DNA of 64,000 nt from Ascidiella aspersa (GCA_963924565.1 OZ004609.1:17918001-17982000); one strand, 5' to 3'. Shown: positions 5,718 to 63,602, numbered from the stretch's first letter. The notes: a model not told the origin generated them from the letters alone. Made by a program: numbers and translations.

Positions 5718-6659
5718 ATGCCTGTATGCGGTGTCCCACAAGGTTGTATATTAGCACCTCTCCTGTTTCAAATTTACATTAATGACTTACCAATAAACTC
5801 AAATATAAATTGTAGTTTATACGCAGATGATACTGTCATTTACTCTTCTAACAAAGACATAAAACAGCTTCAAAAAATAATTCAAATAGATATAGAAAAA
5901 ATTGACCACTGGTTTCGGGCTAATAAATTATCAATTAATCATCCTAAAACACATTACTTGGTAACCAATTCAAATTTGGAAATAGAAAATCAATTCAGTA
6001 TTAAAATAAGGGATAATAAACTGAAACAGGTAAATTCAGCGAAATATTTAGGCCTCATCATAGATGATAAATTGTCATGGATACCTCATATTAAAATGAT
6101 TGAACAAAAGATATCTAGGGGAATTGGACTCTTATCAAAAATGAAATACTATTTGGACACTCATGCACTTCGCCTTTTGTATTATAGCTTAATCAATACT
6201 CATCTTCGATATTGTGTTGTAACCTGGGGTAGAGCTTATCCAACTAAATTAAAACATCTTGAAGTACTACAGAATAGGGCAATCCAAATTTTAAGCGGCA
6301 CCCCTCCTAAAACAAGATTACTTCCATTATATCATAACCACTCAATTTTAAAATTGCACGACCTAACCAAATTGGAAATATTGCAAATAATTCATAACTT
6401 TAAAAACAACAAATTACCAGAAACATTGGCAAATTTGATGGCCCCCCTAGAAATCTTACATTCCCATAATACAAGGCTGCGGGATAAACAAAACTATTTT
6501 CAAGTCGGCGCCTCCACCAACTCAGGAAGAAAAACCATAGGATTTTTAGGGCCAAAATATTGGGAGAATTTAGATATAAATATTAAACTATTACCATACA
6601 AGTCATTTGTTAAGGCAATTAAACTAATGTTGTTGAACTTTTACCACGAGGGAACGTAA
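5718..6659 (+). pseudogene. LINE reverse transcriptase ORF2, C-terminal fragment
   Basis: 313-aa ORF with GVPQG, YADD and YLG motifs. The upstream part of the RT domain is in another frame and is 5'-truncated. Confidence 0.88.
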
Positions 6660-11188: not shown

Positions 11189-14100
11189 ATGAGGCTTGTA
11201 TTTGTAGTGCTTGTGGTAGCTTGCTTTTGGCATACTACGCGTTCAATCACCACAATTTCACCAGGACTACCACCAGCGGAAAATTGCAAACACTACAAAT
11301 CTTTGATCACCGACCTTCTAGTGACAGTGTCTGCTTCGTTTCTAGCGGACAACCCTCGCGGCACTGACCCTGCCCTTAATCCGCAGCGTGTGCGCCCGCA
11401 CTCCCCAGATGGCCTGTTTCGGGCATATTATGGAGTCGGTGCATCGGCCGAAGAGTTCAAGAAGGCGATTCTCGACATGGTGTATCTGAAATTCGGCAAG
11501 ACCCAAAAAATGGATCGCAATCAATTGCGCAGAAACATTGCCCTTTATGTATCAGCTGGCAGCTTCAATCTAGCCCGACATACCATGGGACAACTGCTTT
11601 TTGCAATCACCGGCGACTATGCGGGGCTTGACAAGGCTTGGGTGACTGCGGCTTGCCTGGCTTTCAGTCGCGTTCAGACTGCAGAAACCGCTTTAGGCAT
11701 TGAGTTCTCTAGGTAAGGATTGTAGTTTAACTGAAACATTCGTTCTCGAGGAGACCACAGGTATTTGTGTCAAGTGTCCTCTTATAAAATAAGTATCCAC
11801 TCTTTAAAGCTGAACTAAGAATATTGACGTGTGCAAAATATTTCCTCATTTCAGGTTTGCGGTAAACCTCCTAAATTTAAACACGAAAGCTTCAAATAGA
11901 ATTTAAGTTGGTGTTTTAACAAAAACTCTTTCCTAAGTTTGCACGCATTTAGAATTGTGTAATAAATTAATAATGCTTGCAAGGTAAAAAAAAAATGCTG
12001 ACAAGCTATTTTCGATTCGGCGCCCACACAAATGTCATGTCACAGCAATACCGCCATTGGGTTAGTTAATCGAATCCAGCTAAGGTAAAAAAAAATTGTT
12101 GGTGACAGCTAATGTACAACATTCTTTCTAGTACAGTGGATCCCAACCTGGGAGTGTGCGGCCCCCAAAGAGGTCGCAATGGGTTGTCTGGAGGGTTGCC
12201 GTGTAGTATTTGATAAAGAAAAATGCATATGAAATAATAAAGATAAACAAAAAGTTTAGCAGTATAAAAGGAGAAAAAGAAACCGCCCGTCAAACATTTG
12301 TCTTTATGTGGCTTTCGCTGCAGTAAACCAGTTATGTTTATGACGTCACCATAACACTTTTCAATTATTGAATCAAGCGTAGCTACAGTCAAACGATGGC
12401 TAATAAAAATGAATGGACGCTCAAACCGTAACTTTAGCTTGTTGTGCATACTTAAATCCGAACATTTTAGCCAAATTTCGATGCAATCCGTCTAGATTTT
12501 TCCCAATTTGAATTTGCTAATTTTTAAATGTGTGTCGCGAGAACAAAAATTTGAGAACCAGTATCACTGTCCTAATAGTATTTCATCCAGTTTCCCTTCT
12601 GTGTTATGACATTGCACTTTCTACACTTAGGCTAAGAAACGAAGTTGGGGACTTGGAGTACGGCAGTTTTCTGGCTGTGGGAAGCGGAAAGACGCTGGCG
12701 TTTGTTATCGACGATACCGGAAGTATGGGAGGAGAGATACGGGATGCACAGCAGCGAGTCAACGTAACGTGTTTCTTATATATATCCGTATAAATCTATT
12801 TATATTAGCGAAACTGAGAATCAGTACAGATTAACATAGTGCTTTTCATTGTTCATTAATGAGCCAGAGAACCCTAGAAAATAACCTCGCAATGCCGTGT
12901 AATTGGATAGCGAACGAATGGCTGAATCCAGAGATACCTATTTCAAAATTTACCCAGTACTGTCAAAGGTGTTCACCATAAACAAATTGATCTTACCAAC
13001 TGTTAGTTGGTTGCCTTTTGCCTCATGTGTAATGGCGAGTGTTGCATATTGCCGCAAGATTCATTTCATAAATTTGTATACCAATATTGTAAAGGTTCTT
13101 TTCACGTCATGGTTTTATCTTGCTGTGAAATTTAACGATATCGTATAACCGATGTTTTTAAGCTGGGCTACATTTTGTCATAAGTATACAACAGTTTATC
13201 TTGTGTTACGTTTTGTTGCCATTGTCTTATTTCTTCTGTTTTATGTTGCTTGATTGGTATTTTAGTTGATCATTGATCATTTACAAAACTCGTTGGATCG
13301 ACCCCAGTCTTTCGTCCTCGTACCTTTCAACGATCCCAGGGTCGGTCCTCTCACTGTGACGAGGGATCCAAACACTTTTAAGGCTGCTATTAATAAGTAA
13401 TTGAATTTACTATTATTTTATGTAATTTATCTGCTATATATATAAATTTAGCCAAATTTACTTTATTTTGTATATTATTATATATTTTTTTTGTTTATAA
13501 GTAATACCCGACTAGAAAAACACATGACGTTGTTTATAGGTCGTATAATCGATTTTAATTGAATTCATGTTCTGATAGAAGATAGAGGATAAAACGCATG
13601 TGTAATAGGTATTTTGCAGGGCATAATACACTGACTAGAAGTAGTAATGGCTGGTCGATCATTCCCAGATCACTAGGATCTGATTGTAATAACAAATAGT
13701 TGGTTTCGGTTGGTTGGTGGGTTGTGTTGCGTTGTATATGGGAAACTGTTCTTCTCTTTTAACAAGATGATGAAATCCCTAAAAGCCCACTGCCCATAAC
13801 GAACGGGACACTTTTTGTTTAAAGCCGCCCTTTTGACAAATAAACACTTAAGGATATAAAGGGGCATACAAACCACGACAATAAAGACTACATTATACTT
13901 GTTTTGATTGTATAATTCTGTTTTGTAGACTGTTTGCATCTGGAGGCGGAGATGCCCCAGAATTATGTCTTCGCGGAATACAGATCGCATTGGAAAACTG
14001 TAGAGCTGGTTCCATTGTTTATGTCATAACCGATGTCCATGCGAAGGATTATCATTTACAGGTGAAACATGCATAAGTTTTTCTTATTACAAAATTATGC

Positions 14101-40100: not shown

Positions 40101-43100
40101 AGGTAGGAAGTCTAATAGTTAGTTCAACAGGCGCACGTTCGCTAAACTTAGACCGCCTCAAGGGCGTGCGTAGCAGCGCATAATTGTTGGTTGGATGTAT
40201 GGCTGCATTTTATATGGTGTATACGTTTTCTTATAGTTTGTCCGTATGCACGTTTGAACCGGTGCAGAAGTGAAATACGTCTTGATCTTATCGACAGACC
40301 GGTTGGTGCACATTTTATGAAACATCACACATTTAAAAGATATCTGAGTCTCGGTAATTTAAAAATTACACTACGCCACCCACAAGAGACTCGCTTTTGG
40401 ACAACACGTTATAAAAAAGTTTAATGACTTAAACGCCGGACTCAATCGTAATTTTGGTTTCATGAAACATTACGCGCTGTTTTAGCGAACGTGCGCCTTT
40501 GGAACTGTTAGAAATGAAACATCCTACCTTTTATCACCTTTTACTTTAGCTTGTTTTAACCGTTATTTTTCTTTTCTTACTTTGACCTGATAAAGCACGG
40601 TTGTGCGAAAGCTCGTCAGCAGTATAATACAATTTGTCAACATCGCCACTTGTTTTAAAATTCGATAAAATAACTTGAAATTGTTCTATGCATACAACAA
40701 ACTACAAAAAACCTGAAACAACTTCTTGATCACAGACTACCTATGTTTGTCCCTATTTTCCGTTTTTTTTACTTCGTCATTGACTCAGATACAACTTCGT
40801 GACCCCACTGACCTCGCTGGTGGTGATCCGCTCCGAGGACCGGAAACAAATCGAGGAAGATCTGAAAGATGCGGAGAAGCTGCGGAAGCAGGAGGAGCAG
40901 GAGGGACTCCGGTCGATCGCGGCGATCTGGACGACGACGACCACCACGCGTGCTCCTCCTCCTCCTCCCATGCGACATCTCGCCTATGACGGCTCTCGTT
41001 CAGGAGGAGGTGGATTTTACGGCGACCCTCACTTCGTTGTTCCTCTTCGGGAGGACACGAAACTTTGCTTCAACTGGGACGGGAAAGACAACGAGGTGGG
41101 AAACTCCATCGGTTTCTTCTCCAAAAAAATAAAAAATAAAAAAATCGCACGGATTTTATAATTTTCGACGTAAATTGTATCAGTGCTTTTCAACCGGGTG
41201 TATCGTACACCCCAGGGTGTACCAGATTTTTTGAAGGGTGAACCACGTTGGCGGGGTGTTGTGGGGTGCAAAAGATACCGCATTACAATAAAGTCTATGA
41301 TCATAATAAATAAACAGGTGTTTTACCAGTCTGACTTGAGTGTACAATACATGGCACAACCTGTATTTAAGCGTACGTAGCTTGTAAGATACTATTTTTT
41401 ATTTGTGTCATCATAACCATTATTTCCTGGGGTGTACAAGTTCTTTAGTAAACGTAAAAGTGTGTACTGTTCCAAAAAAGGTTGACAAGCACCGAATTAT
41501 ATTACATTTTCCTTACAAGGTACCTACAAAGGTAGATTATAAACAGCAATTAATGACTAAACTGTATTTAAAACTCTGCTGCAGATCTACAACTTGTTCT
41601 ACAATCCCGTCAGCCGCGTCACGGTTAATGGTTTGCTTATCGTCAGGGACGTTGCCAAGCTTAAAAAGCCGGGATCCTTCATTTCAAAATTGGCTATCTA
41701 TCTGCCTGAGAGGAACTTTCGAATTATTGTAAGTTTATGTTCGTATCTTATATTTCCTGTGATTCTTTGGTAAAACCAGTTAGAATTCTGCATTTGTGTG
41801 CCAATTAACATCAAATTCTAATACGCGTGTTATGAGTGAAATGCCCTTGCAAGAACGGCGTGCCTAAGAAGCAAAAATTGTAACAAATTTTAAAATTTCC
41901 TAAATGTTCTGGCGTTTATGTTAAGCTCCGGACATGGCCCAAGATACATTACGGGATATAACGTATCCGAAGTACAACAAGCTTCACAACTTTTAACCTT
42001 CCCTACCCTATCAGAGGCATTGCGTCCGGAGCGTTGTTCCGAATACCTACTGGTGGATGTTTGAAAATAATTTTCTCCATTGTTCAAAGCTTCAGAATGC
42101 AAACTCTTAGGAACTTTAGTGTAACCCTTTCAGTACAAACTTATTTTGTTTTTTTTACGAACGTAAAGTGCTTGTAAAGAAATGCCCAACTTCTGACTAA
42201 CGAATTACAGAAACTTGTCGACAATGGATGCACCCGGCAGTCTAAGCCATAAATATTCAAATTGTTTCGTTTGAGTTGGGCGATTTTTTTTAAATGATGG
42301 TGAAACGTCATCCTATCTATATGAAGACCGTTCCACTTTAGGCCTGGATCTGACTTTTAATTAATATTTAAAAAACACTGTAACATTTTATAGGTTACCC
42401 CTTATAACGTGACGATTTGGCGCAACGATTATTCCAAACCACTGATATTCAACGTCACCTACCTAATGACCTTCACCAGAAAAGGAATTAGCGTGAAATT
42501 TCTTCGCGCAACTCACAGCACCGCGAAGATACAAGTTTTCTGCTACGGTTTAATATTTAACGTAAGTTCAAGATTGGAAACTGGTTTAAAGTTAAATTTG
42601 TGTGCGTTAAATCGAATCCAATTTTCGCTTCTTTGTATAGATCACTTCATACAGTAAGTGCTGTATAAACTATACACAATTTGAATAATAACAAGTGATG
42701 CAGAAATGAGTTGCAAAGTTTGCCTGGCTACTGTTTTTTTGCTCATGACGAACTCGTTTGCGATGATTTGAATGGTATATACAAGTTAAGATTTTTTATT
42801 TAAAGCGGATCCGTAACGCCGTTTTATCTTGGTAATATACTTCAAGAAAGCCTTGCAAGTGACATGTCAACTTACAGGAATATGCAGGTAAATGCCGCCG
42901 GCGTTTATCCATTCCTAATTTCTGAAACCGTGTAGCATACCACGGCGCACGTAAATTATGTGCCATAGTACAGCTTAAGCATAAGACTATGCTTTATCTG
43001 GATCTCGGAAAAGTTCATCGTTGGCTAACTACTGTACATTTTGTGGATTTGTTTATGTAATAGGCAGCGTTGTAAACTAGTCATTTTGAAATGACTCAAT

Positions 43101-46100
43101 ATCCAGTCAAGTCATTCGTAAAATAACTTATTCAAGTCAGGTCTTTTGCAAAAAATAACAAGTGAAGTCCCAGTCCAACTTAATTGCACTTAAGTCAAGT
43201 CATTCTTTACAACTACAACACTGATAATAGGTAAAACAATCGTGGTACGAAGAATGTTTTTTATAATGTCACTTTCGCCTTTTAGAGTAGTTTGCATCTA
43301 TAACGAACCTGTGCAAGAATATTCTAATGTTTTGACCACTTTAAAAGGTTTAAAATAAATATGTTTTATTAATAAATACATTTAACGAAAACATAACAAT
43401 AGAGTGTAATGGCCATTTACGAATAAATATGCACGTAGAAACACAACAAATGCTCGAAAAGAATCACAATAGAAACAAAAATGTTGAATCGGACATGTTT
43501 AAGCAGCTCTTGGTATAAATATTAAAAAAGGAACGTCAAGAAATAACAAAAAAGAGCGACGAACTACAAACTCTGTGGAATGAGGTATGTTGCAAAAGAT
43601 AAAAACGATGAACTTTAGTTTAGTACCAGCAACGAGAGCGGCACATGCCGCAGGTAATCCTCACTCCGCGGATGCGCGCGTTCTGATATCTCCACTTTCT
43701 TCTACGGCGCATTGTTCCTCGTCGTTTTCTTGTCATTCCGCTCTTTGTTGCTCTTTTGGTGCGAGAAAATTCTAAAGGAAAAAAGAAATACGTGATTGGT
43801 GACGAAGGCATAATTTATTTACGGCAGGCGCTAGAACTCTGCACAGTGTGACTCGCACAGACATTCCCAGCACAGAAATAATCAGATTAACCACAAACCC
43901 GAGCGAAAGTTCCGAAAATAAACACGACATATACATCAAGTTACTTGTTTTGAGCGGCTTTCACACGACTTAATGCGATGATTATCCGGCGGTGAATTCC
44001 ACCGTATAGCTATTATTTCATTCGCTTTTAAGTCATCTTATCTTCAAGTGTAATTGTAAATATACCTTCTTCGTCCGAGATGCTTCTCTTTGTCAACACG
44101 CCAGTGTGGCAGCGGTGTACCAACAGGTTACACTTCATCTTAACAATAAAGCCGCATCGTTGCTGCAATTGTTTCTTAACATGTTTCCTAAAAAGAAGAA
44201 GAAAACATTCGTTTTAGACTTGATTTACCCAAATTAAGCAACCTGACTGCGTGTTTAGCATTGCTTTAAACGTCAGGGTACTATATAAATTCATTGCATA
44301 TACAGTACTTACTTTGAAAATATTTTATCCGGCTTTCCCACTCTTCTTGTCACAAGGGATCCAGTTGGGGTTTTGCCTCTTCTGCGACGCCTGGCTTCCC
44401 CAGGCATGACAAGGAACAGCAAGGCAAGTACAAGGCATAATAACACGCATTGACTAATTCCGGACATGACAGTGTTTTACGTATTCTTATAATCGCGTAA
44501 AGGTTTGCTGTGGCATTCCCGGCGAGTCTATGTTGCCACGTGGTGCCAAACGTCTTTTATAGCCACCGCCTTTTTTCTCACCGGTTCAAAATCGATCGCC
44601 CGGGGAATTTCGTACTGCGACCGTAAAAAAGCGCGTCAAATCGATAGGTTGTCGTTTCAAAGGCCATTTCCGCCTAAATAATTACAAAAAAATTGTTTTT
44701 CGATTAGCTTTATTGCTTTGGCAAAGAGTAGCTAAAAGGCCGAATTAACTTTGGGGAAATCAGTTATCTTTGCCAGAATTCGCACAAATACGAATTCTCA
44801 AGTAAACCAAGTGGCAAATTTACTTACATTCGATGGTAAGTCCAACATATAATAGTCATGGATTATTAGATGATGTGGTACAAAGTTTGTTTCTTCGTTC
44901 TAAGTTGATATACGTTAGCAATTATACATTTTATTCTGTAACTTGTCTGGTTTGCATCATTGATCTACTGAGTCGCTTATTCTGTCGAAGGCTTTCGGTG
45001 TACAATTATGTTTTTTAATTATTCTTTTGAACGTAGCCACTCTACAGCAAATCTACTGTGAGTTTGTGGAAAAACTCAATTGATCTTTAATTTGTCAGCA
45101 TGACGTAGTTTGCTGGGTAATATAATGACCAATAAGGCCCTTTGGAATGTGTGCACCCTCATTTAATGCGACATTTTTACGCATTAGATCAACACGCATC
45201 AGGGCAAAAATCCAATTAGTTTGGGGTTTGCGTCACTGGAGAGCGTTATTCGACAAATCAATCTTTGTTTGATATTGCTAACATCCAATGTGGTTACGTA
45301 AAATGTCGAATGGAGCGTTTTGCTTCGTTTGTTTGCACAGAAAACAAAAGAGCTTACTCACACAAGGCACAAACAAAGGCGACGTAATTAGGGTCTTCCC
45401 CCGAAGGTGTCGTCAAACCGTTCCGCGTGAACTTGAATCCCATAGTTTCCTTCGAAGAACAAAGCTGGCAGCAGCACTTTCTCTTTTATACGTTGGTGGT
45501 GATTAATTATAGGTTGTTTCACTATAGGTAGGGCGGGCGAAAAAGTTGTTTTTACCTCGTTCGATCTTCGTGACCTGCTTAAGCACATGCTTTGTCAAGC
45601 ACAACAAAGAATCACACAATGTTTTTACCGATGACTGGTTTGATTGCGAAACTTGCGCGTATCAAAAACGAACACAAAATAAAATTTAGCCAAAGCTACA
45701 GATTTAACGTGGCATGACCAGCATACGAAGCTTATCGCGCTGCCGATATACTTTCGTTAAAAATTTCGCAAGTCCAGAAATTAGTCACCCAGCATTTCGT
45801 CAGATTTCCCATAAAGCTTTGTTATACGTCACTGATGTTGGCAGCTGCCCTGTACATTAGTAACGTATGCTTTGTTGGTTTTGCCTTGGGCACTCAGAGA
45901 TATAGTATGTGGCAAAAAAAGCTTGTACTCCACTGCGTATAGTGGTTTTGCGATTTAAGCGATGCCTGGTTTCATTAAAAAGGCATTTGTTTATCCTATA
46001 CCGTAATGTAATTTACCTGAAAATAACTCAACCGTATTTCACGAATAGCAACATTTCATGATATTTAAATCATTATAGGAAAAAGTTATGAGAAATACAC

Positions 46101-49100
46101 ATTTGCGGACTTTGTACAGCAAACGGCCTAAAAGCCCGAAGCTTTCCTGTTAAAATAACATAGGTTATATATAGATTTTACCGTTGTGTTTTGTCCGTTC
46201 GTTCAGGGGCTAAAAAGTGTGATGCTGTACCTTTAAAGATGCTTTTACCGATTTAATGATGTTTAAACAGCTTTTATCAAAAGCAATACGAGTGCACTTA
46301 TCTTTCCTTCCAATCAAACCCCTAAGGAACCGTGAACGCTACCGATTGAGTTTTGTGTGCCTTAAAAGCTCTGTCGTTATATCGCGCAAAATATATGGTC
46401 GTGATTTTCAACCTTTCATGACTGATGAAAAACTGAAATGAAAGCTATATTTTTGCACTCTCGCTTAAACAAATTAAAAAAAACGATGGACGACAATGGA
46501 CGCTGGAGATATAGGACTTGTTGGCATTATGTCTGATGTTATTCAGATTTCTAAATCACAGAGCCTTTAGGTTTTTCTATCTACCTCAACCCCTGTTAAA
46601 CGCTTTGTCGCTAGAAATGGTAGACCCTACAGTGTATGAATTATAAAGTAGAATAAGCACATTTTTGAAATTCGAACTTCACATCAACGAAGTTGTATGC
46701 AAACTAATTTTTTTGTTATACAATTGCCACGATTAATCTCTAATGATAAAACAAAAGTTATGGGATCAACTGGGCCTTTCATATACTAAACGGTCTTTCC
46801 CTGCTTTCCGGGAACCGGTTTCTAAGCCATAAACATATCTAACCATCTCAGGCCAACCGTTGCAAAAAGTTAAAATGTAAGTAAAGAAATAGAAACCTTA
46901 AAATCATTTGTTTCTTTACAACTTAGAAAAGTTCATTTATATTATTTTAGTTTAGAAATAAACTCGTCGGTTTAACTTTTTATTGTTTTTTGTCGCATTT
47001 AAAAAAATCACCTGTCGTCAAAAAAGTATACAATGGTATTAGGTGCTCATAAAACTAATATAAAGTTATTGTATTAACCTAAGAAAAGCGCACCTTCGGC
47101 ATTCATTTAATTGGTCATCTTGTTTGCTATGCTATATGTTGTTGAATAAGTTTGCAATACTTTTAGATTTGTTGATTAACTTTTGTCACGCAAACGACAT
47201 ACATATTTTTAAACTTTGAACGTTTCTCGAGGTGGAAATGGATTGCAGACTTATTTGAGCGATAACAAACATAGATCTGCGTTAGATGTATTAAAAATAC
47301 TATTGAACCGACGTTTCAATATTAATAAATAAGGCCTTTATCCGTAAACGAACCCAAGAATAGTAGAGATGTGAGATTGGCTATGTATATAAAAACTAGC
47401 AGAAGCCAATCATTTTCAAGGCTCGACTAGCAGAAGCACGCTCGAACGTGTACTTAGCGCCTGCACGGCATACCGGAGCACCGGCTTATACCGACGTTTG
47501 TTGCTGTTAGCCACAACTTGCCAGTCCGCATTTTTTCCGTTCAACTTTCGTAGCGTCCTGCTGGTGAGAGTCATGATGAATTGCAACTCCCCCTTGACAT
47601 AATATCGGCTTGAACATGAGTAAATGTCGCATTGTATGCGGAACAAACTAGTGGTAATATTACTATTAAAAAATCGTGCACCTAAAAGTCATATTTCAAT
47701 AGTTTCCTAAAATGTTAAAATGCATTTTTTTGCGTTTGTTGTTTTGTTGCTTTCCCGTATTTTTTATTTATTTATTTGAATAATTTACATTACAAATAAA
47801 TTCTGAAATGGCTTTGTTAAACTGTATTGAAAATCTTTGATATTTTAAAGGAGCGATGCATTCTACTATTAAAGTGTTTGTGAAGGATCTGTAAAAATAA
47901 AGAGTAAGCAATATTCCAGGCGGACGTAAAGAATTTCTCCTTGAGCTTAGTTTACTTGAAATGTGTTTACATGACGTATGATTTGTACTTAAAACAGCAC
48001 CTGTTCTGATTGACAGATGTTGTGCAATTTTTCTTGTTCTTGGTTGAATGCTTTTCACTCGTCCGCGAATAGTGAGTTTCTCATTGGTCATTCAGTCACA
48101 TTCCGGAGAAAATGGGTTGTCAAAAAAATGTTGTTTTTTTCTGATGACAAACTGCACGTTTGTTAGTTAATTTAGGGAAGCCAAGAAAAAAATTTACGTG
48201 TTTTTTTATCAAGTTAAATAGGTGACGTTACAAACTTTGTTGTGTAACTTTGGATTTTTTCACAAATATGTGTTGGACAACAGATTCTGCCCTATGACGG
48301 AATATAACTGTTGCATAACGCAGACAAAAGGCTGGGCCTTTATGTTTTACCTGACAAACTTATTTCACTGTGACTTTTTCGCGCTTTATATTTCAATAAT
48401 TCGTAGAAGTCTGCTATAAAAACATCTATAGTTTAATTTACGCATGGGCAGAATACAAATCTTATATTTAGTTTGTTTTCACCAGACTATTACTCACAAG
48501 ACGTGTTTAGTCTGTATCTTGTAAGACTTATAAGAGAAAATGCACTCTGAGAAAAAATATCAGTGTGATTTAACACCTAACGGTTATAGAAAAAGCTACA
48601 CAAATTATCACAACCAACAGACAAATCGATATAATGTAACTTTTGATACGTTACTTTTTGTTAAATGGTAGAACAAATAATATGTTGCTGTTTAAAAATT
48701 TAACACGACCTTAACGAACCGAAATTTCAGTAAATTTATTTGTAGTTTTTAGTTTTTAATACAAATATTTCAAATTATTATGATAAAGCGTGAAATTAGC
48801 CCTATATAACCAACTTGGTAGTTTCAAACAGTGTGGAAAAGACGACATTTAAAAAAAAAATTAATGAAAATAACCATTCCTTCAGTCCTAATAAGTTTAT
48901 CTTTTCAATTGTTTAGATGAAGCTGGTTCGGCGGCGACCGAATATGGTAGACCACCTCGATTTCTCTATGACGACCCATCACATTTCGGAGGAGCCGTCG
49001 GACGGTGTCATAGGTCAATTTTTAAACGCTGATGTTCGACTTGAGGAAGGCGATCAGGATATGGCATACATGGAAATTAAGTAAGTTTCAAAACAATCTT

Positions 49101-51539
49101 ATTTTGCCATGCGAAAAATAAATATTTTATGTGTTACACTGTCTTAAATTTTAGCGATGTTATACCTTTTTAGAAAAGTTTACCATTTTTTGGTGTTTGA
49201 TTGTACTTACACAAACGCCAACTCCTATTTTACGATCTAAACGCATGTTTTTAAATTGAATTTTGTTAAAAGGCATACCCAGTCTCGTATGTTCAGTAAT
49301 TAAGCAAGAGGTTGTATGAATCGTCCATTCGTTCGGCTTTCGCCCACACAGTTATTTTTAGGCCTGGGCATTTTTCAAAAATAAGTTGTCTCTGTGTGTA
49401 AGTGTTAGTGTTTAGTGTTTCTATAAACTGGAAAGACGATGCAACTTAACGTCACTCACAAAGAAAATAGATCAAAAGAAAAAGTTCCACTTTATGGCGA
49501 CTGTGATGATTGCTGATTGCGTTTCTACGAAAAAATTCCTGGCCTCTCTTTCTCTCTCTCTTTTCTTTTCTCTCCGTTGATCTTTTTCGGTAGACCACCA
49601 TGATCTTGACATAAACCGGATGTTTTTTTAAAAGCGTTATTAAAAGTTTTTAACACTATATTTCGCTTTTGTTTACGGGTATGATAACTGTTACCAGTTT
49701 TCAATTATGTTTTATTATTGATTTTGACATGAACCATTTTCGCATAGGAATTTAGTGTTTTTTTTTAACTGAAAATGTCGAGCCTTGTTTCTGTTATGTT
49801 TGACGTTTGAACATACAGAGCAAATGGTAACACTTCTGTTATCCGTATCGTTTGGCATTTGAACACCAGTTATTGGCCACCAAACTAAAATGATCCGAGT
49901 TTTCTTGTCGGCATCGTTTCCGCCTGGGCGGTTAACGAGCTTTTCTCTTCTTAATGTGACATAAAAGCTGTTACGTTTATCCGTACAAAGTTCCTGCCCG
50001 ATGGCGTTGTTTTGTTCTTCGCCACGCCAGTATGTGACGCAATTCGAAACGTTCAGATTGCACAGGAAAAGTTGACGCCCCTGGCACCGGTATTTTGCTA
50101 GCCTCAGACACCCGTAGCTTTGAAGCACTAATATTAATATACAGTGTCGCGTTGGTGTAATCAAAAGCATGGCTGTAAGCAACAAAGCATAGGCTACTGC
50201 CGCAAGGTAATATAAAGCACTATTTAAAGTTATCTTGTTCTATTTGCTTAATAAATCTCCTAATCCACAGTAACGGTATTATTTGATATAATCATCTCTT
50301 GTAATATAGTTTTTGTGTTTTAATTCAAGCGAAGTCTATATTCGGTCTACGAACAATTTCTGCTGTTCGATATGCCACCAATAAGCGACACTGCAAACTT
50401 GTCATTATGTTTTCGAGCGTGATATGTACACGTAAAAAATCATAAAGCAATGCAATAAGCAACTAAGGGCGGAAAAAAAGTAACCGTTGCTATAAGTGCA
50501 AGACAACACAACCGTTAATCTTTTTTTGGTACTTCCAACAATCCAAACCTTAGCATTAATGACAATGGCGCTCGCAAGCCTGAAACCACCGAATAGCATT
50601 GAAGTTTGCAAAGACACGCAGTGATTGCCGCAAAGCGGTTGCCGCTGAGATTTAATATCTTTGGACTTTGGAATTTCCGTTTGTTAAACCGACCGAATTT
50701 ATCCGCGCTATACCTTTTGTATAGTTTATTGTACCTTGGCGTTATACCGGTAGCAAAATTCAATCTTAGTACTTGTGTTTTATGATTTACTGGTAATAGA
50801 GTTATCGCGTTTTATTAATAACTTTTTATCAAGAAGATTGACTATATTAACCTATTTTCAACTATAGATTCGATCATGTGGTGAAGATCTTGGCACGAAG
50901 CCGATCAGGGAATTTCCATTTAAAACTGATAAATCATAAAACATTCAATGCTGACAAAGGGGTCTTACGCTATTTCGTTTATATATATTTGTCTGAGGAG
51001 TTATAGATGTGGAATTCAAGATCGCAAATCAAATGCTAAAATTTGGAGTCGTTATCAGTAGATTGGAATGCAGCAGTTTAAGGGACTTTTAGTTGTTTTA
51101 ACTATTTAGCTGGGCTAAGGTTTACGAAAGCGAAATTAGCCTTAGGCTGAACACCTTGTAGAATGGCGAGGAAACCGACCGTGCCGTCGGTATTAAACTT
51201 AACCAGAATTGTGCTGATGTTAAGACCGTGTAAAAACATATTTGTCTCGGTGAACTTATTCTACTTACCTTATCTGGTCGTGCTATGATAAAAAAATATT
51301 CAAATGTAAAAATTGCGATTAAAAAATATATTCTATTGCCATCGTTTTTATTTTTCAGTTCTTGCTTTGGTATGGTCAGCAAGGCAGTTCGACGTGATCC
51401 GGTTACAGATACCCGTCTCACATGTTGGTTTTCCTATGGCAACGCTCGCGACCTTATAAGAGGCAATCATCAGCGCTATCTGGTGGAAGAACTTTTCGAA
51501 ATTCCGCAGTACCAAACTTCCACAAGGGGGCAATGCTAG
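11189..51539 (+). CDS. Secreted VWA7-like / inter-alpha-trypsin inhibitor heavy chain (ITIH)-like chimeric protein, 29 coding exons, about 1622 aa
   Basis: Exons, all GT-AG and phase-consistent, total 4869 nt: 11189-11712, 12631-12763, 13266-13396, 13929-14061, 14806-14955, 15191-15299, 15458-15590, 19166-19337, 21995-22232, 26740-26787, 27313-27455, 27627-27786, 28125-28236, 28442-28622, 31716-31850, 33777-33958, 35831-35980, 36227-36377, 36626-36821, 37170-37290, 37355-37538, 38043-38246, 38896-38985, 39425-39549, 40789-41095, 41585-41728, 42394-42561, 48917-49080, 51359-51539. Signal peptide MRLVFVVLVVACFW. vWA-1: FVIDDTGSMG, VLVPFNDP, GGGDAPELC, ITD. VIT: SRFAETVVTS...LTYQQLLRR. vWA-2: FVIDTSGSMSG, SDG. 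Then ERLWAFLKIKELL, YNFVTPLTSLVV, GDPHFVV, CFNWDG, GVIGQF and CWFSYGN...LIRG. Confidence 0.88.
24475..25389. mobile_element. hAT-type non-autonomous element, 915 bp
   Basis: Perfect 8-bp TSD GTTTAGGC (24467-24474, 25390-25397), imperfect TIRs CAGACCTTGGGC and GCCCAACCCTG, subterminal GGCCCGC motifs. Second copy at about 520-1020. Confidence 0.82.
29370..29415 (+). mobile_element. Degenerate tRNA-derived SINE-like fragment
   Basis: GGTCCCGGTATTACCGGAGGTCATGGGTTCTTCCTCACTGCAGGCC aligns with 32925-32970, which retains a B-box-like GAGTTCAAACC. Confidence 0.45.
29783..29848 (+). repeat. Short tandem repeat (TAATCTAATTTAGTC-like, about 4 copies)
   Basis: TAATCTAATTTA is repeated four times in tandem. 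Confidence 0.75.
30783..31285. mobile_element. hAT-type MITE
   Basis: TIRs CAGGGATGGCGAA (30783-30795) and TTCGCCATCCCTG (31273-31285). Flanks ACCTATA / ACCTAGTA resemble a decayed TSD. Confidence 0.78.
32925..32970 (+). mobile_element. tRNA-derived SINE-like fragment
   Basis: GGAGGTCGTGAGTTCAAACCTCAC resembles a tRNA T-arm/B-box. Homologous copy at 29370-29415. No complete cloverleaf. Confidence 0.45.
37578..38006. repeat. GAGTC/GACTC-rich dispersed repeat family (MITE-like)
   Basis: TGCGGAGTCG start, ...CTCCGCATCCCTG end and many internal GAGTC/GACTC units. Related segments at about 29261-29350, 30405-30435 and 30618-30675. Confidence 0.65.
39965..40665. mobile_element. Foldback/MITE element with inverted arms of about 190 bp
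   Basis: Left arm (about 39968-40157) TGTTGACAAATTGTATTATACTG.TGACGAGCTTTCGC...AGGCGCACGTTCGCTAAA is the reverse complement of the right arm (about 40473-40662) TTTAGCGAACGTGCGCCT...GCGAAAGCTCGTCA.CAGTATAATACAATTTGTCAACA. Confidence 0.88.
41181..41494. mobile_element. hAT-type MITE
   Basis: TIRs CAGTGCTTTTCAACC and GGTTGACAAGCACCG; TSD AATTGTAT / AATTATAT (7 of 8). A related end occurs inverted at about 29156-29199. Confidence 0.78.
43065..43223. mobile_element. Short hAT-type MITE (CAAGTC family)
   Basis: TIRs CAGCGTTGTA and TACAACACTG; TSD GTAATAGG / ATAATAGG. Shares GAAGTCCCAGTC and CAAGTCATT with 2426-2809. Confidence 0.72.
43620..44467 (-). CDS. Nested antisense gene: secreted, highly cationic six-cysteine pro-peptide, 142 aa, 3 exons, family unknown
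   Basis: Minus-strand exons 44467-44313, 44187-44066 and 43771-43620, with canonical donors (GTAAGT, GTATAT), pyrimidine-rich acceptors and compatible phases (2, then 1). Translation: MSGISQCVLLCLVLALLFLVMPGEA RRRRRGKTPTGSLVTRRVGKPDKIFSKKHVKKQLQQRCGFIVKMKCNLLVHRCHTGVLT KR SISDEEEFS RTKR ATKSGMTRKRRGTMRRRRKWRYQNARIRGVRITCGMCRSRCWY*. TATAAAA at 44561-44555 and AATAAA at 43370-43365. Confidence 0.8.
44555..44611 (-). promoter_or_regulatory. Putative core promoter of the nested peptide gene: TATA box plus kappaB-like site
   Basis: GGCTATAAAAG on the minus strand about 90 nt upstream of the ATG; GGGGAATTTC at 44602-44611. Confidence 0.5.
49715..50170 (-). CDS. Nested antisense ORF, 151 aa, cysteine-rich, possibly secreted; candidate paralog of the 43620-44467 peptide
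   Basis: Longest unexplained ORF in the window. Acceptor CTTTGTTGCTTACAG is directly followed by CC-ATG (50170). Hydrophobic N-terminus MLLITPTRHCILILVLQSYG; contains RCQGRQLFLCNLNVSNCVT, a KR site, ITGVQM and TICSVC. Confidence 0.55.
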   Translation of the reverse strand: MLLITPTRHCILILVLQSYGCLRLAKYRCQGRQLFLCNLNVSNCVTYWRGEEQNNAIGQELCTDKRNSFYVTLRREKLVNRPGGNDADKKTRIILVWWPITGVQMPNDTDNRSVTICSVCSNVKHNRNKARHFQLKKNTKFLCENGSCQNQ

Positions 51540-54500
51540 TTCAAATGAATTTGTTTTTTCTTTTTTTATTGATCGAGCTTGACCGGTTAGGGCCACACAC
51601 AAAATCAACATTTTACAAAAATATTTACAAAATTTATTTGCATGCATGTGTTATACTTTTTTGTGTATGTGTGCCGTGTACAGAATTTACAGACTGTAAA
51701 CATGGACTTGGCAGTATGACACATCTTGTTTCGTCGTTAAAGTTCGTAATTTCGTAACAAAAGTTTTGCGTCCTCATAATTTTAGTATTGATTACAGTAA
51801 GATTGACATTTGATACATTTTTACGTCTCTTAGTTTAGGATGCTACCTATTAATTTCCTTCAGGTTTTTTATCCAAAGTATTTCTTCTTGCTTTTAAAAA
51901 AACGCCTCAATTGCGGAAAAACTCCGTTGCTTTGTTTTATGTCTAATTTGTTGCCAATCTGTCACGTTCTTTTAAAACCACATCGCCACAAATTGTTCAA
52001 GCTTTATATGTCATTGTTCATTTTCAATGAAAATCTTTGGTTTCCAAGGTGTTTTATCTTGTCCATTTGCGTTAGCTTAATGTAATGGTGAGTTGTTATC
52101 GCATTGTTGATTTCTTAAAACCCTATCGCATTCAGCATAATCTACAAGGAAATCTTGGTGCAACGTCATATTGCAATTACGTAACAAAGATGCTTTACAA
52201 ATGTTCACTTTTGCAAAATAAACCGTAATGTTTCATCTTTAAGCAATAGCCCTTACAAGTACGTTTTGATGGCACCTTTTTAGAATACCGGCTACTATAG
52301 TAGATTATAAACATGGCAAATCGTTCAACAGTTAATGACAGTAAGTGTTTGTTGTGTTTTGTGAAGTCCAATCATTGCGTCACCTTATTCGTTGCATGGG
52401 CGTCGATCACAATAATATCTATCTCTACTTATGTCTGTTAGCTTGTCCAAATAAAAAATGTAAATAGCTGTTTCGCCCTTTTCGTAATTACGACGAACAA
52501 CATATTTGTATTTTGATGCATAGATCCTTTTAGCAAGTGTTAAAACAAAGAACAAAAAGTGGTCAACGCTTATAACAGTCAGCTTCATGTTTTAAACGAT
52601 TAGAAATGCCTTAATGGTAATGTTGCTTTAATTAGGTTTAAAAATTAGGTTTTAATCAGGAATTTTACAAAAAAAAAATGTTATGGGCGACGTTCGTGTC
52701 GGGATAATTTGGTTATATGTTTGAAATAGGACATAGGAGTTGCTGCAGTCGTCAAACGCAAAGTAAACACGACGTCTATCTCAATATTGCGATGTAAACA
52801 TCCTAAGTAACATTCTTTGGTCACAGAAGGGGGCCCAACCCCGTCTTTGCGACATGCCCCGTGACTGCCTAGCCCCAGCTAAGCGGGGTGTCCACTCGAC
52901 GACCCTTGAAGCTTCCTATTCAAGGCTCGGGAATGGCAGAGGCTTTAGGTGTGTCCGCTGTTATTGTTGTATAGTTAAACATGAGATGGGAATTCCCTCG
53001 AACATTTACAATGCACTGCTTGGTGCTTTTGTTACGATTACGACGCGCCACGAATGTTGATTGCTGTGTCGGTGCAGTCGTTGACATATTTTGGAAATGA
53101 ATTGAAATAACGAGCCATGTTGTTACGGTTAAAATTTAATATAATAATTTCGATTTCCTAACATTTTTTTTTATTTTGAGATTACTTAAACGTGTTTTAA
53201 ACAAATTTTGTTTATTTGTTTACTAAAATCTTCGCCAATGTTTAGTTTGTAATCCGTGAAAAACGTAACAACTGCGCTACACGCCTACACGCACGTCGCA
53301 CGCCCATCATTCCTGCATTGTAGTGTCATATCGGTGTTGGATAAACCCGAACTACTCGCATTATGGTCGACCCGAATAGTTTAGGAGCCTACAGGAATAA
53401 AGCGAGGTGCGAGGTGATATTACAGGAAAAACATGGAAAATTTATATAATTTACAATCAACAAATTTGTGTTACCTTTAATACGCCCTCTCTACAAACCC
53501 GAATTTCAAGAAAAAGTGTATTTTTTAGGGGTTAAGATGCATTTATAGTTTAGGGTATATTTTAAAAACCGTCATCGTCTGATGTCAGGGAGAGTATTTT
53601 TAAATTAAATTACCCAGATTTGCATTTTATTGTGATTCATACCCTTACCCAGAAATGTATGTCATAATCAGTTTATGTTCGTCGGCCGGTAGAATCATTG
53701 ATACTAATATCATTTGGACAACGGCATCTATATATCTGCTGGTAAGTATGACAAAAGATCATTTTAACCCGGCTTAAAACCATCTAATGTCATATTGCCT
53801 GTCTTTAAGCTATGTCATCTAAACCAATTACACGTATAACTGCGTAGGTCATTTTGGGTGAGTAATTTTGGCGTCACCTGGGATATAAGGTTTCAGTGTC
53901 GAACTCAAATAGCGGAAGTGCTTAGTTCACAACCAAGTGCGAAACTACCTTTGGATTTGGTTGCAAGAACATCTGTTAGCATTCTTTGAAAAAAATAGTC
54001 ACTGATTCAATTGCATTACGAGTTGCTTGTTTATACATTATCTCGCAGTTGGACATATTTTCAAGGTTGTTTCTATTAGAACGTAAACAAGCTAAACTTC
54101 AAACTTATTCGTTTTTGCAGATTTAAAAATGTGCACCCCCCCGCATTTTATACCAAAAGTAGGCGTAAAACCCCTGGTTTATGGCAAATTAGATGATTAA
54201 AATACTTGCTCTCCCAGATAAGTAGATGTTAAAAAAGCTGGTCTAGAACCCTATTAATGACGTTAAACCCTATGAATGTGACACAAAGTTACGTACCGCC
54301 TTAAATATTTGTTATTTCTCCGCTATACTATGTGTTTCGCTAGGATGCTTTTGAATCGCGTGATTTACCAATTTTTTGTACTCGTAATGTTGATGAATAT
54401 GTATGCGATTGCGATTATTACTTCTTTAAAAGTTGTGGCGTACTTGGTATTTTTAATCCGTGAGATTTCGTGAATTACTATTAAATTAAGTATATTGTAG

Positions 54501-57500: not shown

Positions 57501-58623
57501 TCATTTCAAAACGTAGTAAGCAACTCGCTGCATCACGGGGTGCAAACCAGATACAGGAAAAAAGGCGAACGAAATACCAGATGGTGGTACATCGGGCGCG
57601 CGTTGTACCTGTATATTGCCCCAATGTAGTCGTGTATGAGGGAAAGGGCTGTTTACCGAAGGGCTTGCGCAAGATCTAATCAGAAGGCGGCGAACGTTAT
57701 CTTAATTTATCTCAGGATTTTTCTCCCGTCGTTCTGTTGCAGATTGACTTAGTGTGAGGAAAGTAGAATACCGGATTTCGTTGATGAAGAGGGATTTTGT
57801 TTCTCCGGGGTTTCTAACGTGAGACATAAATGTATAACAGCCGAGTTGTTTGATGATATGCTTTTGTGCCATGTGTTACTTTAAGAAATATTAAATATTC
57901 TACGGTGGTTATTTAATGTTAGGAAATCGTTCTGTCTACCTGAAAATGTATATATACTGTTAATTAACTGCTGTAGGACTACGTTTTAAAATAGATGTGT
58001 ATGAACAACTTTGGAAAAGTATAGGTCATGAAAAAATTATGTTGGTTGAACACAAGAAGTAAAAACGGGAAGTTGTTTTTACATGTAATACGTTGCTATA
58101 GTCACTTATATAAATAACGATTTTACAGTTAAGGTTAGACAAGTGAATAATTTCGCGATGAAATATTCTTGAGACTTGGTGTTCCTCAGAATTTAAAAAA
58201 TTCATTATTTCACGAAGGCGTGTCAAGTAGTCGCAGGCTGTAGCAAAAGTTGCAAGTTGTGTAAGGTCAAATACAAGTGCTCTATAATGCGCCTGCAGCC
58301 GTTAGGCAAAACAACCTCACACGTCGTTTTGGTGCAGTTCGACATGCTAACTTTTCTACAATTTAAACTTTGCACTTGTGTCTTTACTTTCACATTTAAT
58401 TTCAACCGAACAAATGCGAGTCTTTAAGAATACGAAAAGCTTTTGCCCTTAAAATGCACAATATATAAGTTCTCACTTTCTATTTATACGGATTTGTTCA
58501 GGTGACACCGACTTGGGGCTATGCCCTGTATAGCGAAGTGACGTTTGTTTAATTTAATAAATCAAAAACAATTACAAGCAAATTATTGAATATTTTCGAA
58601 ATAAACATAAGTTGTGTTTAACG

Positions 58624-61600
58624 ATGGAAAATCGTCGAATGGTCGGATTTCTCGTTTTTGCCTATTTTGCTGCCATCACCGCAACGACAACGGCCAGTAC
58701 TCACAAGCCGACTAAATTAGTGATGTCACCAAAAATGACGTCATCTACTGAGAAGCGATGGCGCTGCCCGCGAAAGTGTTCTTGCAATTCGACGACACGG
58801 GAGGTGCGCTGTGTTTACCAGAAGTTGGATCGCGTTCCATTTGGTAAGACATACTTAACGTAAAAGTTTTGCACTATCTACGCCAAACACTAAGAGGAAA
58901 CATGAAAATATTTAAGATGTTATCTTACGCATAACTTTCCTACATTAGTGAAACTAACTCAAATTGCCTGCATTTTCGGGATACCTGTGCTTTGTATTGT
59001 TTTTATTTTACGACCAATTATATTTTTTGCAATGTATAGGGCAAATGCTTTCCTTTCGCATTTTCCAACATTGTTTCGTTCACCATTTTATGTAGATATT
59101 GTAACTTGTTCGTCGGAAAAATGACGAACTTAGAGTGACGCAGGTAGCGATCTTGGTAATCTTGTGGTGCATCATCGGAAGTGGGGCGTTAGGCAACGTG
59201 TAATTTTTTCGGATGGGGCGTATTGGGTTAAAACTTTAAAACATCACTTTTAGGTGTCAATTTGGTTAAAAAAATAACTTTGCCAGTAGCGCGGTGTGAG
59301 TTGAAATATGACACAAAAAGCTTGGCTAAAGCCTTTTGTAAGCGACCCTACACAGATATTTTTTATTTTGTTAAAGCGAAAGGTAAAATAAATTATCACA
59401 GTAATTTACCAAACCACAGGTCCATCGTTTTTTATGTGCTTTTATTATCTTTTATATTTTGGTGAAAAGTATCGCTAAATACCAATAAAAAGTTGTAACC
59501 TTTTGATAAAGTATAACCTACGCTTTGATCAAGCAATATAGGCGACCCAGCATTTTTGTTGGAAACGAGGGCGAAATAGTTCCCCTTATACTAAAGTGAC
59601 TCTCCGTGCGGTACTTGGCATTTCAAAAGCAATATCAAAAGCGCCGAGTGGCTCTCCATTCGATGGCTTAAAATATTTTCTTTGACACAATACACACCAA
59701 TATCCAACGTAAGCTATCTCATTGAACCAAACATTGTATATATTAAGTCTATCGAACTGTTTAAAATCGTACTATATAGGATTCGTCAGACATACATGAA
59801 GGAAGGAACCAACCAAGTAAGACGCATAACTTCGCGCATGTTTAAGAAATGTCAATTTTAGTTTCCAGCGGGAAACGAAAAACTGTGTTTGGTAGGACAA
59901 CCGTTGATCACTGACAAGTGACAGTCGGTAATGGACTATGATGAGATAATGAAAATTATTGTACTTTTGAAAGTAGTATGCATCGAGAACGACAACGTAA
60001 AAATTCTTACGAAAGCATTGACTTTCACATGTTTGTTATCCATTCAAATTATTGATAAAAAAATAGATCAAGTTGCCTTAATTCCTACGCAAAATAACAA
60101 ATATTACATTAAGTATTTGTAATTTAATTTGCGAAGTGTTATGAGTCTACATTAGGTAAAGCGTTTCGGAGTCGAACATTTTCGCACATTGCACGTTATC
60201 TATAGCAATTAACCAAATAACCTCATTGTCCCTTAACCCTTTCTGCGTTGCATTCTCACGCAATAAAGTTGGGGCTCGTGTTTGTTCCTTGAAAGTGTGA
60301 GAATGTGAGTGGACACATCGGGAAAACGTCACGTTATCGCGTGCTGACCGCCGTAGAACTCGATGGACACTTACCGGTCAAATCGGTCAGCCCCAAGGTG
60401 TGTCGTCATGGTATGTTCAAACGGGGTATTGCGTCGTATGTCGCTGCCCCCACCCTCAGCCTTATTTACAACCCCCCGCGTTAAACCGTCCAATGTTGCT
60501 GTTGCTTATAGACTAGCACTTGTGGATGCTCATTGGCATGAGGAATTTCGATGGCTCTCTCCGTTTGTTCGACTGCATATTGAAGGTCATGGATTAAAAT
60601 ATTTAAGGGCTATATAGGTAAACCTGATTTAGTGTAATTCCGATAGTAAGTAAAATAGCTATGCCGTTTTTTTAGCAATCGCTCCAAGCAACCCATAGAC
60701 GATATATGCACTTACACACGACACATTAACATTCGTGCTCTTCCAACTGTTTTGACAGCGAAGAGCACCCTGGCAATATGGCAAAAATGGAAGCTAGGTA
60801 ACCACAAAGAGTTGATAGCGTGACGATGCAAACCCGCCATGACAACATCTGTCCGTTTGCTCATTTGCCCATCAGCGCCTTAACGGCGAACCGTGAGCAA
60901 AGCGTACTAAAACGGCACGCTGGAAATTCTTTGAACCCCTTTGTGCCTTAAGCGCTTGCGAGCTTCACCGATGAACTGTAAGCCTGCATTCCGAGAAAAC
61001 GAGAAGGTTATCGGGTTCGTCATCCCGCAATACTGGTCGTTGCGGTTTTGATTGACATCCGGAAAAGCGTCGGAGTTTCTTTGTGCCACTGAGGTCCAGT
61101 TAATGTAAAATTCATACTTATTCAACAATGCGTATTGTTGTTCGTCTACGTCCGGTCTGACATAGCGGTTAGCAAATACAACCCTGCGCACGGGCGATCT
61201 CAATATGCCACTCAGACCCCTTGGCTGAAATCGGGTTACGCGAAAATGAATAAAGCGCCGCTATGAAGCGATTTAGGAGGCTTAGAACTTGTTTACGAAA
61301 ATTGCCAAACGCCAACTGCAATCCGAGATGCTCAACGTCAATTGACGTCACGCTTGGAAAGCTGTCAATCAACGTTGATCGAAGGCTGCTTAACGTTGAA
61401 TGAAAAGCGATGCACCGGGGACTTGACGTTACCACACTAATTGGCCCGTCTTGTTGAGCAGCATATTTCCAGTTCATAAACATGTTCACAGAGATATTTT
61501 TAATACAAATTTGCACAGGCTTTAGGCTTTTTATTCTTTTACCTCACTACAGTGTAGTTTGATTTATCACCATTCTAGCGATACAATGTTTCGAATAATA

Positions 61601-63602
61601 TACTTTGTTATCACAGATATTCCCAAAGCAACGAAGCACCTTATTCTAAAAGGCAACCATATCATTTATCTACCGAGGCGCCTTAGAAGATTGGTGAACT
61701 TGGAAACGCTTGACCTTAGCTCAAATGAACTGGATTCTATTCCTGATAGGTAAAACATGTAAAACATAGTACTGGCGGTTAACGCTTTTAATTGTAAAGA
61801 CAACGGTATATTTCATTTCGAATTTTTAACTGTATTAAACTGCTATTACCAATACCAAGCAAAGCAAAACTAGTAAAACAAGCAGATTTATTTTAGGAAA
61901 AGTAACCAATTTGCCATCGTTAATTCTCGGAAAATATGTATCGCGTTATAATACAAGTTTTGGTATTTTTGTTTGATGACGTTGCAGATCAAAAGCGTTT
62001 ATATGACATGGTGACAAGTCAGAACCTAGTTATGTGGGTAATGCTAAACTCTTTTTAAAAAGACTTTGTCTTTTTCGACTCAGATATTTTACGAAGATGA
62101 GGGAACTGCGGAAACTCGATGTTTCATCAAACCTGCTCGAGTACTTGCCGCGATCGTTACGTAAACTCACCAAGCTCAAGATTCTACTGGCACGAAACAA
62201 CAAGCTCGGAAAGCTCCAAATTGACTCATTTCAAGGTCTCACTCAAGTCAAGGAGGTCAATAAATTAAAACAATCTCTTTAAAATGTTTTAAACACAGTA
62301 ATATCTATCTTGAAGTTACTTTTTTATCGGGTGCAGTTTTTTACGCATGAAAACCTTAATGATGTGAAATTACTTTTTATGTGAAAATAGCTTTTGAATT
62401 GGGATAAATTAAAATATTTATGTGATATAAGTTAAAAGCAGAGCATAGTGTATAATTATGAAAAACTTTTTCTCTAATGAGAAAGAATCCTTATATTTTT
62501 TGTTTCCACAGCTCGACTTAAGCGACAACCTTCTGCAAACTCTTGAGCTGGCTATGTTCTCAGATCTTGGCAATCTGGAAGAAATTTACCTACAGGAAAA
62601 TCTTCTTCACTGCGACTGCGAACTAAAAAACCTGGAAATGTACTTTCATCAAAATAATATTAAATCCGGGTAAGAGCAAGCATAATAGGTTGTTGAACCT
62701 TAGCAGTTACTTTTCCTTTTACGATTGTGGTTCAACATTTGGATTTAAATAGGCTATACCGTACCTATATAGTTTGTATTTTTCATAATCGTGTGTATTT
62801 CGGGAAGAGTTAAGTGCCAAAAGAAGTAAAATACTGATATTGTAGACTGTTAGGGCTATTCGCAATGAACCAAGGACAATTAAATCATTAATATTATGGT
62901 TCAAATCATTTAGTATCGGTGATTTTTATAATGCGTTGCCGCAAGAATATTCAAGTTTGGTAAAAAAACCATGGTTGCTATAATTCCCTTTGGTACTACA
63001 TATTTGTGTTCGTCAGGATTTTCATCCTTAAAACTTCGATTTAAATTAAAGGATGACATGCGTGTTGCTTAAAATAGATTCACGAAAACAAAATAATTTA
63101 AAATATATTTCTTAACAGATACATTGTTTGTGATTCACCATCGGACATAACTGGAAAACATTTAGCTAAGCTTTACACCAAAGACCTTTGTCCCCCGAAG
63201 CACAGCGTGCTTGTGTCTATCCTACTGGGAGAGTTTTTCGGCCTTATGGCGATTCTTTTTGCCATTTACATGTGTCGCCGTCGAAGCGCGGCTGAGCTTG
63301 AGATGCGTCGTAATTTTTGGCCAGAAAAAGAGCTTTCTAACCCCTCCAAATTGCCAAAAAACTTCTCTGAATCTAGCGTATTCGGTAACGACGTGGCCGA
63401 TTCGAAATCGAGTGGCGGTATAGTAGTTTCTGGAAACCAAATAATCAGCGAAAACGTGCCTTTAACCTGCCACCTTGCGGATGACGAAAAGGGCTCTGTC
63501 GTCACGTTGGTGCCGTGCATTCAAACGAACGCACCCGACAAAATCGAGTATGAAAGAGAAGACACGTTAGTGGACGTGCTGGACTCCTACTGCGACAAAT
63601 AA
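58624..63602 (+). CDS. Single-pass type I leucine-rich repeat membrane protein (LRRNT, 6 LRRs, LRRCT, TM, cytoplasmic tail), 388 aa
   Basis: Exons 58624-58843, 61617-61749, 62084-62255, 62512-62669 and 63119-63602 (1167 nt, phase-consistent). Signal peptide; LRRNT CPRKCSCNSTTREVRC; LxxLxLxxN repeats; LRRCT NLLHCDC...VCDSP...LC; TM VLVSILLGEFFGLMAILFAIYMC followed by RRR. Confidence 0.92.

Follow-up and report, generated by a model that had tools for sequence, protein, structure and literature searches.

The 64,000-nt stretch of Ascidiella aspersa DNA analysed here (the window) carries on its plus strand an ITIH-like gene, recognized from Pfam matches to VWA and to the C-terminal domain of ITI heavy chains; with single exons scanned one by one, each match fell under the curated cut-off. 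Two minus-strand features lie in neighbouring introns of this host, as a reading made from the sequence only had stated. The first, gene 1 (43620-44467), is a spliced and transcribed three-exon gene within the penultimate intron (42562-48916); the second, ORF2, is an ATG-initiated frame of 151 codons within the last coding intron, and was present as that reading had described it. An Rfam scan of positions 43000-52000 gave no match. The features of the locus and the further genomic loci of the family to which gene 1 belongs are collected in Table 1.

Table 1. Features of the host locus and genomic loci of the gene 1 family (window coordinates unless a contig is given).
Feature	Position	Strand	Evidence or remark
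Third exon of gene 1, coding for a basic linker and the A part, whose C-x2-C-x3-C-W stands right before the stop	43620-43771	-	RNA joint 43771/44066
Second exon of gene 1, coding for the B part (C-x7-C-x6-C, then KRS site)	44066-44187	-	
First exon of gene 1, coding for a predicted signal peptide plus a basic pro-piece	44313-44467	-	Splice model; RNA joint 44186/44312
Host exon matching the C-terminal domain of ITI heavy chains	48917-49080	+	PF06668, E 1e-5, 25.7 bits, under 27-bit cut-off; RNA
Last coding intron of ITIH-like host, contains ORF2	49081-51358	+	8 X5 raw reads; X3 depth 152
Minor host-strand transcript piece over most of ORF2	49442-50206	+	One X3 contig, depth 4.5 vs ~150 at normal junction
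ORF2, flagged 151-codon frame, likely non-coding, single copy	49715-50170	-	ORF scan, profile tests, genome search, RNA
ORF2 C-x7-C-x6-C stretch resembling gene 1	50033-50089	-	
AG before ORF2 ATG, acceptor-like, weak	50173-50174	-	2.7 bits; no junction seen
Last coding exon of ITIH-like host	51359-51539	+	
Four close family copies (L014, L016, L017, L018)	G000:C2:7274160-7365229		
Family paralog	G000:C2:7585017		
Family paralog	G000:C7:20087139, last exon near 20084549		
Family paralog	G000:C3:26494552		

Elsewhere in the window, a high-copy short repeat lies just downstream of gene 1 (about 43060-43210; X1 contig depth >17,000), and similar AAGTCAAGTC units occur at 48845 and in locus L036. 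A 313-aa ORF at 5718-6659 (+) contains a partial reverse transcriptase domain and resembles a LINE-like remnant, while a 175-aa ORF at 11189-11716 (+) has a signal-like N-terminus and belongs to no Pfam family; on length alone, the latter outranks ORF2 as a candidate orphan secreted gene. Exons at 58561-63602 (+), which open with a signal-like start and a weak LRRNT match and include a cytoplasmic-tail-like ORF at 63246-63602, likely encode an LRR membrane protein.

Four RNA runs were mapped on positions 42800-51800. About 6/100 of the raw X5 run was read, reaching gene 1 at just 2-4x, and the X3 run, of unrecorded kind, gave spliced contigs that show presence, not absence. Both predicted introns of gene 1 were found spliced, each in one X5 raw read and in X3 contigs at depths of 108 and 132, and the orientation of the X5 reads over gene 1 was opposite to that over the host. 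A genome search with gene 1 exon 2 found two further loci, and these two found five more, so that the family comprises eight loci in the genome (gene 1 and seven paralogs) together with three outside relatives, the locus counts being lower bounds. Six full gene models were built, exon 1 being left unmodelled for two identical copies on contig C2. In all six, the N-terminus was hydrophobic and the B part was preceded by a phase-2 intron (RNA-confirmed in gene 1 only); three had a phase-1 intron in the spacer. The family layout consists of the hydrophobic N-terminus, the phase-2 intron, a three-Cys B part, a [KR]RS[IV] site, an acidic patch, a basic run and an A part ending in C-x2-C-x3-C-W, with a spacer of 25-55 aa between the halves that contains dibasic sites, and a net charge of +11 to +33. 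The [KR]RS[IV] site stands 6-8 residues past the third Cys in 10/10 family sequences, and the terminal C-x2-C-x3-C-W within two residues of the stop in nine; the sole sequence missing it, P0004, was likely read into an intron. The B part has C-x7-C-x6-C in seven of the ten and C-x2-C-x6-C in the other three. No C-terminal Gly amide donor was seen in the family alignment. The small uncharacterised family that the sequence-only reading had proposed thus exists and has C-x7-C-x6-C in its signature, but membership of ORF2 was not shown, as set out below.

The four close copies on C2 lie within 91 kb, carry the B and A parts in one exon, are 91-100% identical over exon 2 and have C-x2-C-x6-C in the B part. 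Exon 1 of L017 and L018 runs into a short Lys/Cys repeat, where no splice model was accepted, and L018 was excluded from the profiles, its exon 2 protein being identical to that of L017. Beyond this genome, a profile of three B parts matched six of 1.84 billion representative proteins, comprising three members and three repetitive sequences (P0002, P0005 and P0006) that were dropped, P0002 being judged from the results table alone. P0004 is a metagenome-derived protein with a B part most like that of gene 1 and is possibly its orthologue from another ascidian. Metagenome scans with P0004 were empty, as were homologue searches with gene 1 exon 2 and with the family alignment. The full family layout is found within 108 aa in Ciona intestinalis LOC100181000 (XP_002129225; H2XNB6), an uncharacterized protein with no function, name or Pfam family, which in the A. 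aspersa genome matches the C7 paralog best, at 45% identity across the B part (E 4e-8), and does not detect ORF2. Three extra matches of this search (L035-L037) were dropped for absence of the motifs; at L035 (about 1500-1630; G000:C6:24825994-24826122, +), a stretch that is broken by stops, has just one Cys and is similar to the B part of the Ciona protein (E 0.014) is either a decayed copy or a chance match. The 3+3 cysteine precursor layout matched no Pfam family, and a family model with helical B and A parts (pLDDT 49, too weak for Cys connectivity) had no PDB match at E<=0.001.

ORF2 had been proposed as a diverged paralog of gene 1 on the strength of a shared Cys motif. The two 19-mers concerned (50089-50033 and 44159-44103) are identical at 8 of 19 positions, three Cys included, as reported. 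In shuffle controls, the alignment of ORF2 with the gene 1 protein (the spliced model, 142 aa) was not significant, giving a local BLOSUM62 score of 30 where shuffles averaged 29.0 (p=0.39) and p=0.28 for the global alignment, and ORF2 fell outside the 15 best scores when the gene 1 protein was compared with 2204 stop-free stretches of the window. Of 3000 shuffles, 106 reached 8/19 identities or more at any place; when the three Cys had to be aligned as well, one of 3000 shuffles and none of 40 simulated windows did so, which favours the paralog claim through a test defined only once the match had been seen. Taken together, these pairwise tests make the case one that rests on the cysteines. 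The DNA of the two loci showed no similarity (140/200 shuffles aligned as well), with 23/57 positions identical across the motif. The downstream words put forward as collinear, ITGVQM/IRGVRI and a CxxC, do exist, but they are out of register and I-x-G-V is absent from other family members. A KR site was said to occur in both; gene 1 has KRS, but ORF2 contains no [KR]RS[IV]. The shared CNL-x-V letters proved peculiar to gene 1 and are no family trait.

With seven paralogs and a Ciona relative of gene 1 available, membership of ORF2 in the family could be tested directly. In leave-one-group-out profiles, 7/7 held-out members scored 32.9-54.9 bits, a range reached by 0/500 shuffles, whereas ORF2 scored -3.5 to 0.0 bits on all six family profiles, with 167-466 of 500 shuffles as high. 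A profile including the outside relatives gave ORF2 -3.4 bits (417/500 shuffles as high), or 2.4 bits without composition correction (199/500). On an ungapped PSSM built without gene 1 and P0004, ORF2 scored -7.1 bits, a value reached at 160 positions in 149 kb, against 22.0 for gene 1; with gene 1 included, ORF2 rose to 0.5 bits and was beaten by two chance positions. The hhalign probability of ORF2 against the family was 0.5%, none of eight family-query genome searches returned ORF2, and the reverse search of the genome with ORF2 did not return gene 1. A MAFFT alignment placed the three Cys of ORF2 on those of the family, right after the hydrophobic stretch and with the CxxC later. ORF2 shares with the family the C-x7-C-x6-C of the B part and, by the hydropathy proxy, a hydrophobic signal-like N-terminus. 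The [KR]RS[IV] site kept by all ten members, the Ciona protein included, is absent; so is the C-x2-C-x3-C-W end, in place of which a single CxxC lies 33 residues from the ORF2 terminus; and ORF2 runs on uninterrupted at the place of the phase-2 intron that separates the signal exon of the family from its B part. Its K+R content is 0.15 vs 0.18-0.32 in the family. The claim of a diverged paralog did not withstand these comparisons, since ORF2 fails the leave-one-out profile and lacks two defining features as well as the conserved intron; on sequence grounds, we would not file ORF2 in the gene 1 family, membership being not shown. Of the outcomes that the sequence-only reading had named as refuting its claim, two were obtained within the reach of the data: a pairwise alignment at the level of shuffled controls and the absence of an antisense transcript from the RNA described next.

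The RNA data over ORF2 gave no read on either strand and no antisense transcript, in thin sampling. X5 depth was 0 on both strands across 49121-50324, compared with depths of 2-4 on gene 1 and 6-11 on exons of the host. An X3 contig starting at 49442 runs unbroken through ORF2 and the supposed acceptor and joins, through a GT..AG plus-strand junction at 50206, to the last host exon; a stop lies four codons ahead of this junction, and no long frame enters the last exon. This piece represents a rare host-strand splice with a strong donor at 50207, non-coding so far as seen and antisense over ORF2. The splice acceptor proposed 2 nt before the ORF2 ATG is present as an AG, but the site is ordinary and no junction was seen in RNA: its score of 2.7 bits was reached by 213/1268 intronic AGs, an acceptor at least as good lies within 30 nt of 109/438 intronic ATGs, and 16 of the 20 acceptors used for the matrix (some chosen automatically) outscored it when held out. 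Relative to the reference, the X3 contig that spans ORF2 lacks one base. Two X1 contigs break in a T-run at 49765-49766 (ORF2 codon 135), a hint of a variant there. At least two X1 differences lie inside ORF2, at codons 106 and 147, both residue-changing, two SNPs being too few to judge selection.

The frequency with which chance produces such a frame was estimated in 375 simulated windows, using a Markov null that is imperfect in that it yields 4.6 ORFs of 100 or more codons per window where 12 are seen, and scoring features of ORF2 that were chosen post hoc. ORFs of at least 151 codons occurred 88 times, or in about one window in five; three of those reaching 151 aa had a start as hydrophobic as that of ORF2 and one contained C-x7-C-x6-C, while the two features together occurred in none, whatever the length threshold. 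Overall, we find it somewhat probable that ORF2 is a chance open frame, antisense in the last intron of the ITIH-like gene, and that its three-Cys spacing matches gene 1 by coincidence. ORF2 would then make no protein, its DNA being transcribed only as host pre-mRNA and in the rare host-strand splice form.

ORF2 may alternatively be a genuine orphan gene unrelated to gene 1, whose one coding exon specifies a small, Cys-rich, secreted protein made in an unsampled tissue or stage; as this protein has 10 Cys, its spacing would agree with that of gene 1 by coincidence. We regard this as rather unlikely. Its 151 codons, its Cys content and an N-terminus with a hydropathy proxy (best 8-residue mean) of 2.99, close to the 3.01-3.61 of six family members, argue for such a gene, as do the rarity of long ORFs with hydrophobic starts in the simulation and a GC content of 0.42 vs 0.37 in the background. 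In the atlas, its neighbours (0.81-0.85) are arthropod proteins that are small, secreted and rich in Cys; this is a lead only, all atlas matches being below 0.9. A tissue-restricted gene would be missed by the thin RNA sampling. Against an orphan gene stand the lack of RNA reads and the ordinary acceptor, together with a GC3 of 0.42, unlike the 0.51-0.72 of family exons, and a frame that does no better than the other frames of ORF2. Codon usage does not decide the matter either way, the ORF2 score being equalled by 10.5% of intronic controls and 2/12 true host exons scoring lower. Protein- and DNA-level searches of the 309 Mb assembly returned ORF2 itself as the sole match, no Pfam match was obtained, and no relatives were found in the protein collection or metagenomes, the silence of the protein collection being weak evidence, as that search was equally empty for the family alignment and for gene 1 exon 2. 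A single-sequence fold of ORF2 was uninformative (pLDDT 34.8).

More improbable still is an origin of ORF2 from gene 1 by an old tandem duplication or retrocopying event: the signal peptide and the B-part Cys would have been retained, the two introns, the processing site and the final Cys of the A part would have disappeared, and the protein would now adopt a different single-chain fold. In favour of such a copy, ORF2 has its elements in the order of the family, with a signal-like stretch followed by basic residues, C-x7-C-x6-C, an acidic patch and, further on, a CxxC; their key combination is as rare in the shuffles and simulated windows as described above, and the family is seen to duplicate locally and to lose introns, as in the four C2 copies. 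Such a copy is opposed by the absence of any profile signal beyond the Cys and of DNA similarity, by the lower K+R content, and by the loss of features kept by 10/10 and 9/10 members and of an intron found in 6/6 modelled genes. The rarity of the feature combination, the imperfect post hoc null and the weakness of the homologue-search silence are the reasons for which both the orphan gene and the old copy are retained with some probability. By extension, the ITIH-like gene would house two nested antisense peptide genes, ORF2 being an intronless and remodelled offshoot in which the Cys scaffold of the B part survives and processing has been dropped, a new secreted protein family at birth. We give this proposal little credence; if ORF2 were a true offshoot, it would provide a clear-cut example of divergence past profile detection in a nested gene. 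A repeat or transposon origin of ORF2 was unsupported, the DNA search returning ORF2 alone.

While ORF2 is probably a chance frame, the gene 1 family is conserved between A. aspersa, with its eight loci, and Ciona, and the novelty lies in the family, not in ORF2. Its members are small, strongly basic and likely secreted peptide precursors of ascidians. The precursor would be secreted and cut by a convertase after KR and at the basic run, with loss of the spacer; the mature product may consist of two helical chains with three disulfides between them, perhaps in a turgencin-like ladder order (PMC7024374). Our guess leans slightly towards host defence as the function, favoured because of the high charge, the local gene expansion and the acidic piece behind a cationic helix, as in the Ciona linear peptides (PMC7387483). 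A receptor ligand, for which the conserved orthologous sequence and the invariant terminal Cys-Trp leave room, is a more doubtful guess. A literature search with the Ciona identifiers, three short sequence pieces and topics found no description of the family, supplements with KH/KY ids being outside its scope, and the family is provisionally considered undescribed. It offers tunicate immunologists and peptide biologists synthesisable candidates and one Ciona gene to test.

Several known systems resemble the family in part. Insulin and relaxin precursors have a signal-B-C-A order, dibasic sites and six Cys, the insulins carrying two Cys in B (C-x11-C) and CC-x3-C-x8-C in A. The family shares this order, the dibasic sites, the six Cys and, in three of six modelled genes, a phase-1 spacer intron; assignment to insulin/relaxin was nevertheless rejected, as the 3+3 Cys are spaced otherwise than in the insulin pattern and no Pfam insulin match was obtained. 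The terminal C-x2-C-x3-C spacing also ends the turgencins. Turgencins A and B of the ascidian Synoicum turgens are cationic, helix-loop-helix-like peptides with six Cys connected C1-C6, C2-C5 and C3-C4; they are single chains of ~36 aa with an amidated end, whose genes were not cloned in that study (PMC7024374). Their connectivity is a plausible model for the 3+3 Cys of the family, which differs from a single amidated chain in that its six Cys are divided between halves by the dibasic spacer and no Gly amide donor is seen in the alignment. The Ci-MAM/Ci-PAP group comprises small secreted Ciona precursors in which an acidic piece comes after an Arg-rich cationic helix, and is Cys-free by definition; the published Ciona antimicrobial screen removed Cys-containing sequences and therefore could not have listed the gene 1 family (PMC7387483). 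In the centrocins of sea urchins, one precursor yields a signal peptide, a pro-piece, a cationic heavy chain, an excised interchain and a light chain, the two chains being disulfide-joined (PMC4805251). Centrocins are echinoderm peptides with one disulfide (PMC4805251), whereas the family would have three, and a sequence relation is not expected; the dibasic sites and strong positive charge of the family are consistent with two-chain antimicrobial peptides of the centrocin-like type.
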